Source: Eledone cirrhosa (lineage: Eukaryota). From it: DNA of 64,000 nucleotides. The DNA lies in NCBI GenBank assembly GCA_964016885.1, contig OZ024744.1, forward strand, positions 46,624,001 to 46,688,000, written 5' to 3'. This document shows positions 420 to 59,585 of this stretch, one piece after another. Position 1 is the first letter of the stretch. Each line of letters begins with the position of its first letter. Under the pieces are notes generated by a model, which did no database searches, was not told the origin of the DNA, and saw nothing but the letters and a program-made list of their open reading frames with translations. The translations under genes and the position numbers were made by a program.

Positions 420-468
420 GATTCTACAGGACTAGAACTGTTTCATTCTTTAGAAATCATCAGGAATC
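420..468 (-). ncRNA. Type I hammerhead ribozyme motif in a solo PLE-type terminal repeat
   Basis: Minus strand reads GATTC CTGATGA T TTC-TAAA-GAA T GAA ACAG-ttctagtc-CTGT A GAATC: stem I GATTC/GAATC, intact core, GUA cleavage triplet, U.U at 10.1/11.1. Confidence 0.75.
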
Positions 469-871
469 TGGGTATCAAAAAATAAAAATGGTATTTATAG
501 GTCTCTACAAGTGGTAGGAGAGGGTGGGGAGTGGGATGGGTGAATATATGGATGAATATATATATATGTATATATATATATGTATATATATGTATATATA
601 TATATAAATATGTATATATATATGTGTATATATATATATATGTATATATATATATATATATATATATATATATATATATATATATATGTATATATATATA
701 TATATATATATATATATATATATATATATATATATGAATATATATATGTATATATATATATATATATATACTTCAATACACTCATATATGTATATATATA
801 TGTATATATATGTATAAATATATATATATATGTATATATATATATGTAAATATATATGTGTATATATATAT

Positions 872-907
872 ATTCTTTTACTCTTTTACCTGTTTCAGCC
901 ATCCGGC
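872..907 (-). mobile_element. 3'-terminal stub of the CR1-like LINE family
   Basis: Matches the 3' tail of the LINE at 1553-1590 (GCCGGATGGCTGAAAC.GGTAAAAGAGTAAAAGA). Confidence 0.7.
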
Positions 908-1365
908 ATATATCACTGAGTCTAGGTAGAGGGTGGCGTCCAGGAAGTTAACGTTTTTAGTGTTTTTGTCCATGGTAATACTAAGGTTATAGTTTTTGAA
1001 TGTCTTGTGCAATAGTTTTCTAGCTCTTTCTATATTGAATTTTTTATAATCTATAAGTAGAAGTGCATCATCGCGGTACAAACCACCGTTGAGGTATGGA
1101 AGGTCCTTATGGATTTCGTTAAGTAAATATAGGCCGACTAAATCAGTGACCTGCGCCGTAAGCAAATAAATGATTTAAACTGAACTTTGATTCATGTGAT
1201 TTCTATATAACTGCTCTGTAAAACAACTGATATTATTACATTGCGGTATTTATCTTACTGGTAATAAGATAGTAATGAATTACTGTCTTACACTATTTAG
1301 GGTTTAAAATATATATAACTATATAAGGTTTTATTATATATATAACCATAAATAGTATCCTTAGT
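908..1365 (-). mobile_element. Naiad-like PLE RT fragment (908-1158, minus) fused to an inverted terminal-repeat segment (1158-1365)
   Basis: AQVTDLVGL...GGLYRDDALL...[10 protein letters not shown] motifs. 1158-1305 is a reverse-complement homolog of about 8650-8797. Confidence 0.8.
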
Positions 1366-1552
1366 AATATATATATATATATATGTATTTATACATATAT
1401 ATATATGTATATATATATATATTTGTATATATATATATGTATATATATATATATATATATATATATATGTATATATATATATATATATATATATATATAT
1501 ATATATATATATATATATATATATATATATATATATATATATATATATATAT

Positions 1553-4500
1553 ATACTCTTTTACTCTTTTACCAGTTTCAGCCATCCGGCTGAGGCCATG
1601 CTGGGGCACCGCCCTTGTTGCTACACATTTTATCTCCAGCCTGTATAGGTTGGCCACTGGTGTAAGAGGGAGTTTGTTGCTGCTGCCCTTAGGTTTCTCT
1701 CGTGTCTTGCTGTCTGCTCATCCGGGATCCTTGATAACAAGGTGTCGAGATGTTGCTTGAAGACATCCACCTCCACGTCATGCGAATCTCTCAGATCCCT
1801 CGGCAGCCTGTTGAAGGGTTGAGGGCCCTTGAATCCCAGGCTATTGCAATACCTGTTCCTTATTCTAGATGTGGAAGACGGGACATTTGGCACCACACAG
1901 TGAGGTCCTGTTCGACGGTTGGTCCAGCTCCCAATGCCAAAGTTTGGTGCATGTCCCTCCAGGATTTTGCACGTGTAGATCACTGCGTATCTCTCCCGTC
2001 TTCGTTCCAAGGAGTAGAGGTTCAGTTCCTTTAGCCTCTCCCAGTAGCTTGTCTCCCTCATCTTGGTAAACCTCTTGGTGTAGCCTCGCTGGTTTGCCTC
2101 AAGCTCCGTGGTTAGTTTGACACTATGGGGTGACCACAACTGGGAGCAGTAGTCCAGGCGACTTAGGACAAATGTCCTCCATAGTGTCAACATGGTGTCT
2201 CGATCTCTTGTCCGGAAAGTCCTCAAGATCCAGTCAGCGAGTCGTCTGCACATTGTCGCCACTTTCATGATGTGTGAAGAAAAAGTTGCATCATCGCTCA
2301 TGTCTATGCCCAGGTCTCGTATCGATTTTGACACGGGGATATCGGTCCCTCCTGGTCCTGTGTAGTTGTGTTCTACTATATTTGTGTTTGCAGGTTTGTT
2401 TAGAGGCTTGTATTGTAGGGCTTGGAATTTGCCAGCATTAAACTGCATGTTGTTTTCTTCCGCCCACTTGTATATGGCATCCAGATCCTGCTGTAAAAGG
2501 GCAGCATCAGTCGGGTTTTTGATTGCCTGTGCTACCTTTGTGTCATCAGCATAGCTAGTGAGGGATGTTATTGTATGTACTACAGAAAGCATGTCTGAGA
2601 GAGCCACCAAAAACAGTAGTGGTCCCAGGACTGTCCCCTGGGGCACCCCACTTGTTATTGGTGTTTCCTTTGAGAGGGCCCCATTTGCTGCGACTGCCTG
2701 GCTTCTGTCCCTTAGGAAGCCATGCAGCCACTCACCTACTTTTCCAGTTATGCCGAGTCCGTCTAGTTTGTGACATATCATTCCGTGGTCGACCTTGTCA
2801 AAGGCCTTCGCAAAGTCAAGATATATCACGTCCACATGAGAGCTGTCTAGTAGTTGTTTCAGTACCCAGTCGTAGTGATGTAGCAACGGTGTAAGGCAGC
2901 TTCTTCCTGGACGGAAGCTATGTTGCGTGCTAGTCAGGCGGTAATTTTCCTCGAGGAAAGTGATCAGTTTCTTTCTGACGATTCGCTCCATGACCTTACT
3001 GATATACGACGTCAGGGAGACTGGCCTATAGTTTTTGGCCTCCGCTCTGCTACCTCCTTAATGGATAGGACATATTGTGCCTTCTTTCAGCTCCCTGGGT
3101 AGTACACCGCTAGCCAAGGAGCTTCTGAAGAGCATCTTCAGTGGAGTTGCTAAGGCCCGCTTACATATTTTTAAGAGAACTGCTGCGAATCCATCAGGTC
3201 CAGCAGCCGAGTCTGTTCTAATGTCATCAATGGCGTACACCACATCCTCCTTCGTTATGTCTATGTGGTTGATGGTTGCCATTTCTTGATGTAGTGTTGT
3301 GGCATCAAATAACTCCTCTGGCTTCGTTATTTGCATGTGCTTAGTGGACATGTGAACACACTTTTGTACTATTCGTTCAGTATTTCACATATCTCTTGGG
3401 AGTTTTCGGTTAATGAACCGTCCGTATGGAAGAGTAGCCCAATCTTGCAGTGTACTGAGGCAGTTTCTTTTGAAAATTTAAAGAAGGCCTTAGGGTTTGT
3501 TTTAATGTTTTCTATGGCCCTTTTCTCTTTCTTTGCCCTCTCATTCCCATGGGAAAGCTTGAGTGCAATCTCGGTGCCAAGTAATGCACATTTCAAATAG
3601 GATTCCTTCTTGTTTTGGTTTTGTTGACTATTCAACTGGTTTGAGAGTTTGGTTCTACGTCTCATAAGGATTTTCCTATCTCGGGGAATAAGATTTTTGT
3701 GTCTGTTTGCCTTTTTCTCCGGGACAAACTTTTTGCATATAGTGTGTATCGTTGTCATGAAGTGTTGAAATTGTGTGTTAGTGTCTTGTGTGGCGGTATT
3801 TTCACTCCATGTTTGCTTCCGGATTTCTCTCTTAATCTTTTTCCAATTAGCCTTGTAGAAGTTAAGGCTGGATAACGTCCTGGAGCTTCTTGGTGGTTTT
3901 GTCTCTGTTGGTTCTCTTGAACCACATATCATTAGCTCTACTAAGTTATGATCCGAGAGAATTGTTGGTGTCACCTTTACATTGTGGATGAGCACTTCGT
4001 TGTTTATAAAACAGAGGTCCAGGACATTTTCGCCTCTTGTTGGGAGGAGTATTGCTTGCTCCATGAACAGCCTGTGTGTGAGGGCCAGCAGGGATTCCAT
4101 CTGTCTCTGTTCTATTGACGTCATTACAGGGAGGAGGTGGCCCTCAGGCCATTTGATCTTTGGTAGGTTGAAGTCTCCCAGCAGTAGAATGTTGAGACTC
4201 TGGTCCAGTTTGTCAAGGACCTCTTCTATCATACTTAGGCTATCCTCAAATTTACCCTCATGACTGGGGGCATCGGGCGGCCGATATGTGACACATATTA
4301 CTGTCTGTAGTTGCTTCATATTTATTATCAGTGTGTCACAGACTGAGTTTGAATGTGTCAACAGTACAATTGGTGTGACATCTTCACGGATATACAGAGC
4401 AACCCCACTATGAGTTCTCTCCTTCCTGTCCGAACGAAATACAGTATATTTCGGTATATGTATTTCTGCATCTGCTATACTGCTTGTCAGGTGCGTTTCG

Positions 4501-58192: not shown

Positions 58193-58414
58193 AATAATTG
58201 TTTCTTATATAGGCACAAGGCCAGCAATTTGGGAGTAGGGGAAAGTCGATTAGATCGACCCCACTGCGAGACTGGTACTTTATTTTACCGACCCCGTAAG
58301 GATGAAAGGCAAAGTTAACCTCGGCTGGATTTGAACTCAGATCATAAAGGGCCGGAACTCTATGCTGCAAAGCATGGTGTCCGAACCTCTACCGATACTG
58401 CCAATCCACCACCC
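58193..58414 (-). mobile_element. tRNA-derived SINE, full length
   Basis: Same family as 47599. Confidence 0.82.
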
Positions 58415-58723
58415 TTTTCAATAAATTAATAATACAGCAGTTTTGTATTATTATGGTTCATTTCTATATATTGATTTTCTGTATGATCAAGGAACTATCA
58501 TATCATCATCATCTTAATGAACACTTACTCACTTACCTGAACTCATGCAACCTGTGGTCACACTATCACACAACAGTGACCACACCACACAGCAACAAAT
58601 GAACCAACACTATAACACAATCAACTACCAACACAACCCTCAAATTATTGCTATATATGTACACAGGCACACAGGATGGCTGCCCCTCGTTATCGAGTAT
58701 GGCCATTGCACGAAAAAAAATAT

Positions 58724-59119
58724 ATAATTGTTTCTACTTTTGGCACAAGGCCAGCAATTACGCACTACATTACTGGTACTTTATTTTATCGACCCCATAA
58801 GGATGAAAGGCAAAGTTAACCTCAGCGGGATTTGAACTCAGATCATAAAGGGCCGTAACTCTTTGCTGCAAAGCATGGCGTCCAACCCTCTACCGATACT
58901 GCCAATCCACCGCCTTAATAATAATAATAATAATTGTTTCTACTTTAGGCACAAGACCAGCAATTACCCAGTACATTACTGGTACTTTATTTTATCCACC
59001 CCGTAAAGATGAAAGGCAAAGGTAACCTCGGCGGGATTTGAACTCAGAGTGTAAAGGGACGTAACTATGCTAGAAAGCATGGCGTCCAACCCTCTACCGG
59101 TACTGCCAATTCACCACCC
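58724..59119 (-). mobile_element. Head-to-tail SINE dimer separated by (AAT)n
   Basis: Two units, about 58724-58914 and 58930-59119. Confidence 0.82.
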
Positions 59120-59250
59120 TTATAATAATAATAATAATAATAATAATAATATATATATATATATGCAGAGGTTATATTTAATTTGTTGGGAATCAACAAG
59201 CTTAAACATTTTATAACTGATATAAAGCACTCAACAATTTAGCGGAGTAA

Positions 59251-59585
59251 ATACACAATATATTAATAAATGGAAACTATATTTATAAAACCATATTTAT
59301 TTTATTATACATATTTCAAGGGCAACCAAGGCAAATTATGGTGCGCTTTCATCAGATAAAAATACAGATTTGTTTTATAAATAAATATTGACATACCCGG
59401 TAAAAAGACAACCTTAACGCTCCAACCGTTTTTTTTCCAGGTATGTCAATATTTATTTATGAAACAAATCTGTATTTTATCTGATGAAAGTGCACCATAA
59501 TTTGCCTTGGTTGCCCTTGAAATATGTATAATAAAATAAATATGGTTTTATAAATATAGTTTCCATTTATTAATATATTGTATAT
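59251..59585. repeat. Fold-back inverted repeat (about 150-bp arms), HHR in each arm
   Basis: 59251-59400 is the reverse complement of 59437-59585. Confidence 0.92.
59473..59538 (+). ncRNA. Type I hammerhead ribozyme motif (AUA triplet); mirror copy 59298-59364 (minus)
   Basis: TATTTTAT CTGATGA AAGTGCACCA..TGGTTGCCCTT GAA AT-atgt-AT A ATAAAATA: 8-bp stem I. Confidence 0.8.

Follow-up and report, generated by a model that had tools for sequence, protein, structure and literature searches.

What a cluster of hammerhead-like motifs is doing in a cephalopod genome, and why the helix III of so many of them is self-complementary, are the questions raised by a 64,000-nt stretch of Eledone cirrhosa (contig OZ024744.1, positions 46,624,001-46,688,000; genome size 3.0 Gb), hereafter the window. 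An initial annotation had listed 25 such motifs from roughly a dozen families, nearly all with a palindromic stem III, and proposed that the differing palindromes act as family-specific pairing codes. Our analysis indicates that they are very probably hammerhead ribozymes (HHRs) located in the terminal repeats of Penelope-like elements (PLEs) and in non-coding tandem units of PLE style, and that the palindromes probably limit cleavage to pairs of copies and probably reflect the history of the lineages.

A type I hammerhead-like motif was found at all 25 coordinates, each within a repeat family, and one further damaged copy, absent from the initial list, lies at 6821(-). The families number 15, and the motifs trace back to 18 insertions, since seven pairs are inverted arms or tandem units of a single insertion. 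Chance was controlled by local dinucleotide shuffling of the window. A strict descriptor gave eight matches compared to a mean of 0.12 (maximum 2) in 100 shuffles, and a relaxed descriptor, which required a stem III of at least 2 bp but had no helix III term in its score, gave 16 compared to 0.73 (maximum 3) in 30 shuffles; shuffled sequence thus does not reproduce the density. Two of the 16 relaxed matches are false, being inside an open reading frame (ORF), so that the descriptor recovers 14 of the 25 motifs, and the others were annotated by hand and by family. A first descriptor requiring a pair at positions 10.1/11.1 found only five motifs and was then replaced; mismatches at these positions (U.U, C.A, A.G, A.C) are frequent in the window. 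With one motif per 2.6 kb, the window is about three times as dense as a genome sample (one per 7.6 kb) of 135 stretches of 10 kb (1.35 Mb) over 22 chromosome-size contigs, from which four stretches flanking the window were excluded.

Thirteen of the 15 families combine CUGANGA and GAAA cores with the type I order of helices and an NUH triplet, and vary in having C3-G8 or U3-A8 and, in two families, U4C. The length of helix II ranges from 12 to about 116 nt. In the family W15014 (15011 and 42345) GCAA replaces GAAA in all copies shown, so that A13 is lacking, while in W41983 (35779 and 41977) helix I has only 2 bp throughout the family; the other families all have A13 and no fewer than 3-4 bp in helix I. 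The core of the copy at 32121 is mutated and helix I of the copy at 6926 is damaged. Judging from these sequences, several window motifs (15011/42345, 35779/41977, 32121 and 6926) may be poor catalysts. The W15014 family, of which 11 core-bearing copies occur per 1.35 Mb (L204-L217), offers with its fixed GCAA a natural test of A13.

Compensatory changes of the kind expected of a type I hammerhead were identified in W463, F4 and F0. One helix I pair of W463 is A-U in six copies and C-G in six, and the second helix II pair of F4 takes four different Watson-Crick forms among seven copies. In five families N7 and the loops vary, and the cores are constant. Since the compensatory changes occur among subfamilies, the comparison argues that the hammerhead fold is under selection in the source elements.

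The PLE origin of the motifs, already suggested in the initial annotation, was borne out by the ORFs of the window, which carry motifs of the Hydra and Neptune types, and by the position of the HHRs in terminal repeats. The ORFs assigned on their motifs to the Hydra clade carry DKT, CxCX5C and CxxC/CxH around E and N, lack CCHH, and have a C-terminal GIY-YIG domain (translations compared to the definition in PMC8557442); a (TA)n target, a tail and an inverted 5'-truncated copy accompany them. The start of the W463 ORF reads RWR instead of RWK. The ORF at 37367-40794 is of Neptune type, its linker falling within the definition CX2-5CxxC. HHRs are found 0.2-2.4 kb downstream of PLE ORFs, and where copies stand in tandem, what follows the HHR continues into the next Hydra ORF (W463 at L266, L273 and L281; F3 at L240); locus L240 joins the F3 tail to an ORF 97% identical to that at 29524..31450. 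Hydra ORFs occupy 15.7 kb of the 1.35-Mb sample; the 3' untranslated regions (UTRs) reach about 2.4 kb, and the tails measure 85-130 nt.

Part of the motifs sit in non-coding units of the retrozyme type, which the initial annotation had overlooked. Four families consist of a non-coding tandem unit with a GC content below 45% and one type I HHR (F4, 525 bp; F22, 466 bp; T420, 420 bp; F10, 657 bp). Their GC content is 0.34-0.37, their longest ATG-initiated ORF has at most 53 codons, and as predicted circles they fold better than shuffled sequences (z -2.3 to -10). F22 forms inverted multi-unit arrays (7- then 13+, 11- then 11+ units), 11 of 26 among the loci listed being inverted, as would be expected from rolling-circle copying by the PLE enzyme. 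A T420 cluster with periods of 420 and 311 bp, ACTAGT as helix III and U.U at the base of helix II is located in the window flanks (L031-L033). Another retrozyme family, with nine hammerheads at 311-bp spacing and helix III ACGCGT, was observed at C1:1241766-1244284.

How the copies were inserted can be read from their ends. In each of the families examined, copies stop at two fixed 3' ends, which lie in (TA)n 40-200 nt downstream of where cleavage would occur; the arms of an inverted pair usually have one each. These ends match the two internal start sites of reverse transcription described for an anole PLE in the available text of PMC11167929, and the enzyme of the E. cirrhosa elements would likewise start at two internal sites downstream of the ribozyme, in which case most inserted copies would derive from uncleaved or re-ligated RNA. 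Cleavage after ATATATAT-A, exposing an end that primes on (TA)n, was considered and rejected because the 3' ends lie that far downstream in all families examined. Among 78 inverted pairs of six families, the two arms disagree at 30 of 509 shared-polymorphic sites, compared to 23-44% between loci, and hence come from one RNA or one source locus and not from random family partners. Co-packaging by the palindrome of two RNAs from the family pool is unsupported by this concordance; sibling RNAs from one locus could be so packaged.

The 5' ends were mapped with queries lacking the upstream part; for F3 the youngest subfamily was counted by hand (four arms by eye) on C1-C2 only. There, 22 of 34 arms end 5-10 nt before the core, five inside the ribozyme and seven far upstream. 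The 5' junction letters differ between copies, which rules out that an F3 fold-back was amplified as one unit. In W463, 15 of 30 arms end at -12..+15, where about 1.2 are expected, and in F5, in which some loci look duplicated, 14 of 30 end within 45 nt; in F0 a peak at the ribozyme was looked for and none was seen. An extra G, as from copying of a cap, occurs at the 5' junctions of a few copies and was excluded from the counts as ambiguous.

A TATAAA lies 30 nt upstream of the W463 peak (about 1% by chance within 7 nt), and equally far upstream of the helix I start of the window copy at 419..469. In F3, TCATT at the peak is combined with AGTTG at +28..+32 (chance about 2% given TCAKT), which resemble the consensus motifs of an initiator (Inr) and a downstream promoter element (DPE); the match is absent from one F3 subfamily, and F5 has no clean motif. 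The RNA would often begin at helix I, either from a promoter at the ribozyme edge or after trimming back to helix I. Since the peaks coincide with the outer end of helix I, trimming or arrest of reverse transcription there rivals the promoter on equal terms. In the F4 retrozyme (525-nt unit, a small set of 24 insertions), 13 of 42 5' ends fall within 56 nt after the cleavage site, in an AT-rich stretch, and this cluster is possibly a trace of cleavage.

The claim that stem III is nearly always palindromic was overstated: 17 of the 25 words in the window are self-complementary, of which only 12 are perfect even palindromes, two have a central G.U and three are odd with one unpaired centre. Helix III has decayed in three copies of palindromic families (41977, 42345 and 42852) and is non-palindromic in five motifs, namely 420 (a 16-nt stem-loop with inner CTAG), 6366 (AGAACT), 15545 and 20171 (ACAAATGT) and 32121 (ACCTCTGGT). 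A wider comparison used a table of 37 families, composed of 17 multi-copy clusters, 15 singletons with a helix III of at least 3 bp and five hand-placed families, from which clusters F1, F8, F15, F17, F18 and F21 as well as most singletons had been removed beforehand as false repeat matches. Their words comprise 20 perfect palindromes, four with G.U, six odd words with an unpaired centre, three with one mismatch and four others. Because this selection is biased towards arms that pair and predetermines the centre in 6-mers, the centre was tested on words of at least 8 nt, and the central pair was Watson-Crick (as AT, TA or CG) in 16 of 21 even words (p ~6e-6, the families not being independent). 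Helix III of the monomer has no predicted stability in 36 of the 37 families. Because helix III is self-complementary and unstable as a monomer, this modelling makes cleavage as a dimer likely, in agreement with the dimer-cleavage model in the available text of PMC4209133 and of File S2 of PMC8557442.

A code is another matter. If the palindromes had been selected as family labels that block cross-family pairing and trans cleavage, the families should have unique words, a diversity above random and trans partners from the family pool, and none of this was found. There are 30 distinct words among the 37 families, stable within most of them, and F7 and F0 have the same helix I and different palindromes, with a homodimer at -14.6 compared to -5.7 kcal/mol for the cross, as a code would have it. 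However, four words recur among 11 of the 37 families, and by hand computation the words are not over-dispersed, the seven 6-mers using three out of the eight AY..RT words available (random draws would give about 4.9) and the ten perfect 8-mers eight of 32 (8.7 expected). ATATATAT occurs in the unrelated F6 and in 11 of 29 F0 copies, so that F0 carries two words; ACCGGT tracks the U3-A8 Neptune-type lineage; and F0 and F12 have word as well as helix I in common. Most of the discrimination is provided by helix I, with 49 of 1332 ordered cross-family pairs reaching at least 4 bp, and the arms of inverted insertions derive from one locus. A pairing code is thus unlikely, and we would give it only a slim chance; the differing palindromes are probably a record of lineage history.

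On the reading we prefer, ribozymes in PLE terminal repeats and PLE-style tandems are restricted by their palindromes to cleavage between paired copies, most likely neighbours on one tandem transcript, and in the tandem families dimer cleavage and ligation would yield circles for repeated copying by the PLE enzyme. Several observations weigh against it. Two Neptune-type families have spread with GCAA for GAAA or a 2-bp helix I, and cleavage is thus not needed in all families. In the available text of the respective sources, eight of nine Xenopus retrozyme dimers stayed uncleaved in vitro (bioRxiv 10.64898/2026.07.22.740005), and the ribozyme of the anole PLE required protein, while insertion could proceed without it (PMC11167929). 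The F4 arms are the least concordant (nine of 40 sites discordant), the words of F2 and F13 are non-palindromic, and a parent ORF was looked for but not found for F0, F5, F6, F7 and F12. Tandem arrays could also be explained by DNA-level duplication or long read-through transcripts, and catalytic activity is presumed from modelled structure.

A rival view is that the fold is mainly non-catalytic, helix I and core marking the 5' end of the RNA as promoter overlap, nuclease barrier or protein-binding site, with cleavage incidental. The accumulation of 5' ends at the outer edge of helix I in F3, W463 and F5, the spread of families with likely dead cores and the insertion of HHR mutants in vitro reported in the available part of PMC11167929 would all follow from it. 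It would leave unexplained that all 37 families retain the catalytic core, the NUH triplet and the palindrome, that in F4 the 5' ends are concentrated right behind the cleavage site as well, that F0 has no pile-up, and that rolling-circle-like arrays require a means of making circles; we regard it as unlikely, though a serious competitor. Alternatively, the motifs might be inert passengers, multiplied by their position just upstream of the start of reverse transcription: every 5'-truncated copy retains this part, so that copy number follows position, and individual copies do decay (41977, 42345, 42852 and 32121). Such passive multiplication holds for most inserted copies but not for lineages, in which the compensatory changes among subfamilies show that the fold of the source elements is under selection, and as a general explanation we find it improbable.

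The scale of the phenomenon was estimated from the genome sample, where a relaxed scan gave 202 matches compared to 44-46 in shuffled sequence. Searches with 20 family seeds recovered 177 non-redundant core-bearing copies, 161 of them with the first core box intact, which corresponds to about 390,000 copies genome-wide (bootstrap 306,000-484,000). A pattern run over the whole genome matched 147,840 times in the forward and 213,763 times in the reverse direction, compared to 26,149 and 31,767 in a reversed control; since nested repeats enter into the reverse totals, the floor was set at double the forward excess (243,000), which excludes motifs with long helix II, U3-A8, CCGA and W463. One 40-mer of W463 alone has 12,299 exact occurrences in the genome. 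Schistosoma may have a comparable hammerhead density. At the gathering score, Rfam (RF00163, RF02275 and the clan) detected none of the 25 window motifs and none of 74 copies in 15 loci picked as hammerhead-rich, the top scores in the window being 32.5/52 and 29.1/34 bits among the best 150 of 286 matches. The expectation of a very large complement missed by standard models was thus confirmed. The largest count we found in the literature is that of axolotl, 126,247 motifs despite a far larger genome (available text of PMC7229834), and 235 Hammerhead_1 loci are given for the giant squid in that of PMC6962438. We tentatively suggest, short of an even bet, that E. cirrhosa has the largest hammerhead complement in the literature consulted (about 0.4 million) and that its insertions record three processes. 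These would be transcription start at helix I (W463 with TATA at -30, F3 with Inr and DPE inside the ribozyme), copying of uncleaved RNAs of pseudo-long terminal repeats (pLTRs) as mini-elements resembling short interspersed elements (SINEs), and dimer-dependent cleavage of tandem transcripts into retrozyme circles that the PLE enzyme turns into inverted multi-unit arrays.

Features of the window (GA, Rfam gathering score; RT, reverse transcriptase; EN, endonuclease; mismatches refer to positions 10.1/11.1)
Feature	Position (strand)	Remarks
HHR W463, Hydra-clade pLTR	419..469 (-)	U.U; 3-bp helix II; 16-nt helix III with inner CTAG
PLE ORF end, 5'-truncated	5184..6169 (+)	CX4CxxC linker and GIY-YIG with CCHH (translation); Neptune/Nematis type
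HHR F2	6366..6408 (+)	204 nt past ORF; helix III AGAACT, non-palindromic
Damaged inverted partner of F7 HHR	6766..6829 (-)	limits approximate
HHR F7	6926..6996 (+)	ATGCGCAT; helix I damaged in this copy
Canonical HHR F16	7254..7298 (-)	ACATTGT; inverted pair with 8247-8291; 29.1 bits, below GA 34
Canonical HHR F16	8247..8291 (+)	ACATTGT; inverted pair with 7254-7298
HHR F9, left arm of inverted insertion	8789..8837 (-)	CCGAAGA core; A.G; ACAATTGT
Hydra-clade GIY-YIG end	10751..11239 (-)	CxCX5C, CxxC; within F9 inverted insertion
HHR F9, right arm	11486..11534 (+)	
HHR F3, left arm	11656..11802 (-)	115-nt helix II; C.A; ACGATCGT; 5' end at helix I
HHR F3, right arm	11803..11950 (+)	5' end -7 from core; AGTTG +28..+32 from that base
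Retrozyme-type F4 unit, second subfamily	13992..14593 (+)	partial tandem repeat; HHR 14459-14537, ACTAATTAGT
HHR-like motif W15014	15011..15047 (+)	U3-A8 core; GCAA for GAAA; ACCGGT; Neptune-type parent
HHR W20177, left arm	15548..15655 (-)	CCGAAGA core; 81-nt helix II; ACAAATGT
Two 5'-truncated Hydra-clade RT-EN ORFs, inverted	16423..19420	junction near 17920
HHR W20177, right arm	20173..20280 (+)	~760 nt past ORF
Hydra-clade PLE ORF pieces	20823..22670 (-)	DKT, CxCX5C; 3' end cut
Retrozyme-type F22 insertion, 466-468 bp unit family	26240..26702	HHR 26366-26410 (+), ACTAGT; + arm begins 12 nt before core
HHR F3	26922..27064 (-)	104-nt helix II; 3' end of Hydra element 29524..31450
Hydra-clade PLE ORF pieces, F3 parent	29524..31450 (-)	
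HHR F5	31767..31826 (+)	ACCACTGGT
HHR F13	32117..32194 (-)	core mutated in this copy; ACCTCTGGT (3-nt loop)
HHR-like motif W41983, left arm	35782..35823 (-)	U3-A8 core; ACCGGT; 2-bp helix I
Neptune-type PLE ORF in pieces	37367..40794 (+)	GxKF, DKG, CX4CxxC, CCHH GIY-YIG
W41983 motif, right arm	41981..42022 (+)	palindrome decayed
W15014 motif	42345..42380 (+)	palindrome decayed
Retrozyme-type F10 partial tandem, 657-bp period	42576..43733 (-)	HHRs 42852-42929 (decayed), 43509-43586 (ACCATGGT)
Retrozyme-type F4 unit, 525 bp + 45-nt repeat	43736..44305 (+)	HHR 44168-44250, ACTAATTAGT
HHR F0, left arm	59300..59361 (-)	ATATGTAT with central G.U
HHR F0, right arm	59473..59538 (+)	

The truncated ORF at 5184..6169 covers linker and EN only and fits Neptune or Nematis; a label as Poseidon was dropped because its linker is of the Neptune/Nematis type. 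At 28612-29585, AT-rich tandem repeats (109-294 bp) and microsatellites make up the long 3' UTR that belongs to the Hydra element of F3, and other copies have them too. A long interspersed element of the EN-RT type, nearly intact with 1048 codons and a PHD finger after the RT, is located at 54564-57710 (-), with a second copy at 44324-45514, and other RT fragments from elements without long terminal repeats (non-LTR) lie at 1630-3057, 23464-25533 and 33973-35117, one of them nested near a Hydra element. A short unclassified SINE-like repeat (47534-48322, 52198-52495, 58260-59139 and 62311-62713) gave false matches to the relaxed descriptor, 22 in the 1.35-Mb sample. Outside the window, locus L117 matches 5S rRNA at 248-366 with 101.6 bits. 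Two C2H2 zinc-finger arrays with an 84-bp period (49744-50856 and 63495-63981) are part of a duplicated block.

The elements described here belong to a known kind and occur on an unusual scale; their folds are variant ones, and their insertion footprints are informative. The role of the HHR in PLEs and the enzyme that moves animal retrozymes are both open questions in the literature. With at least 37 families and about 390,000 copies, many of them young, the genome provides natural contrasts for direct tests, including families with the same helix I and different palindromes, the same palindrome and different helix I, fixed core variants, and a helix II of 12-116 nt. Arkhipova's 2017 work on Terminon HHRs may describe a long helix II. 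Annotation based on Rfam misses essentially the whole hammerhead set. In a literature search, mostly of papers outside subscription, neither a hammerhead census of cephalopods nor a test of the pairing-code idea turned up, nor were 5' ends described at helix I.

As far as the available text of the respective papers goes, PLE hammerheads, their palindromic helix III and dimers (PMC4209133), the 10.1/11.1 mismatch (PMC8557442 File S2) and the derivation of retrozymes from PLEs (PMC7229834; bioRxiv 10.64898/2026.07.22.740005) are already published. The PLE HHRs of Cervera and De la Pena 2014 (PMC4209133) resemble ours in being of type I, located in pLTRs, palindromic at 15.2-16.2/loop 3, sometimes of the U3-A8 variant, present as many families per genome and arranged in inverted pairs 100-700 bp apart, and dimer cleavage and circles were proposed there as here. 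In contrast, that paper counts 2,000-9,000 HHRs per genome, whereas E. cirrhosa has about 390,000, with a helix III mostly of 6-10 nt, a helix II of up to 116 nt, frequent replacement of G10.1-C11.1, and CCGA and GCAA cores fixed in some families. The Hydra-clade elements of Craig et al. 2021 (PMC8557442), which include Hydra-1_Obim, share with ours DKT, CxCX5C, CxxC/CxH and the lack of CCHH, as well as (TA)n targets, a tail at one end and inverted 5'-truncated copies. Their HHRs, in the available part of File S2, have U.U (C.A in a Chlamys-group element) at 10.1/11.1 and a near-palindromic helix III but, unlike in those here, helix II is short and most of the helix III words are odd; moreover, Hydra elements were there found in a small number of families, while here their ORFs alone fill 15.7 kb of 1.35 Mb, and their tails measure 30-40 nt compared to 85-130 nt.

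The Poseidon element of Anolis carolinensis belongs to a different clade; in vitro, its two internal RT starts downstream of the HHR define the tail, uncleaved RNA serves as template and both strands are cut and extended, and the available text of PMC11167929 does not describe a 5'-end pile-up at helix I. Penelope of Drosophila virilis has an internal Inr/DPE promoter in the pLTR upstream of the HHR, with an intron between start site and ribozyme (available text of PMC2377424), whereas the start proposed here would lie at helix I, with an upstream TATA in one family. The non-LTR retrozymes, again in the text available, are tandem non-coding units with a GC content below 45% and one type I HHR, self-paired as circles as is predicted for the units here, and their mobilisation by PLEs was proposed from co-occurrence and pLTR similarity (PMC7229834; bioRxiv 10.64898/2026.07.22.740005). 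The retrozyme units of E. cirrhosa bear the PLE insertion signature itself, with two fixed 3' ends, (TA)n and inverted multi-unit arms.

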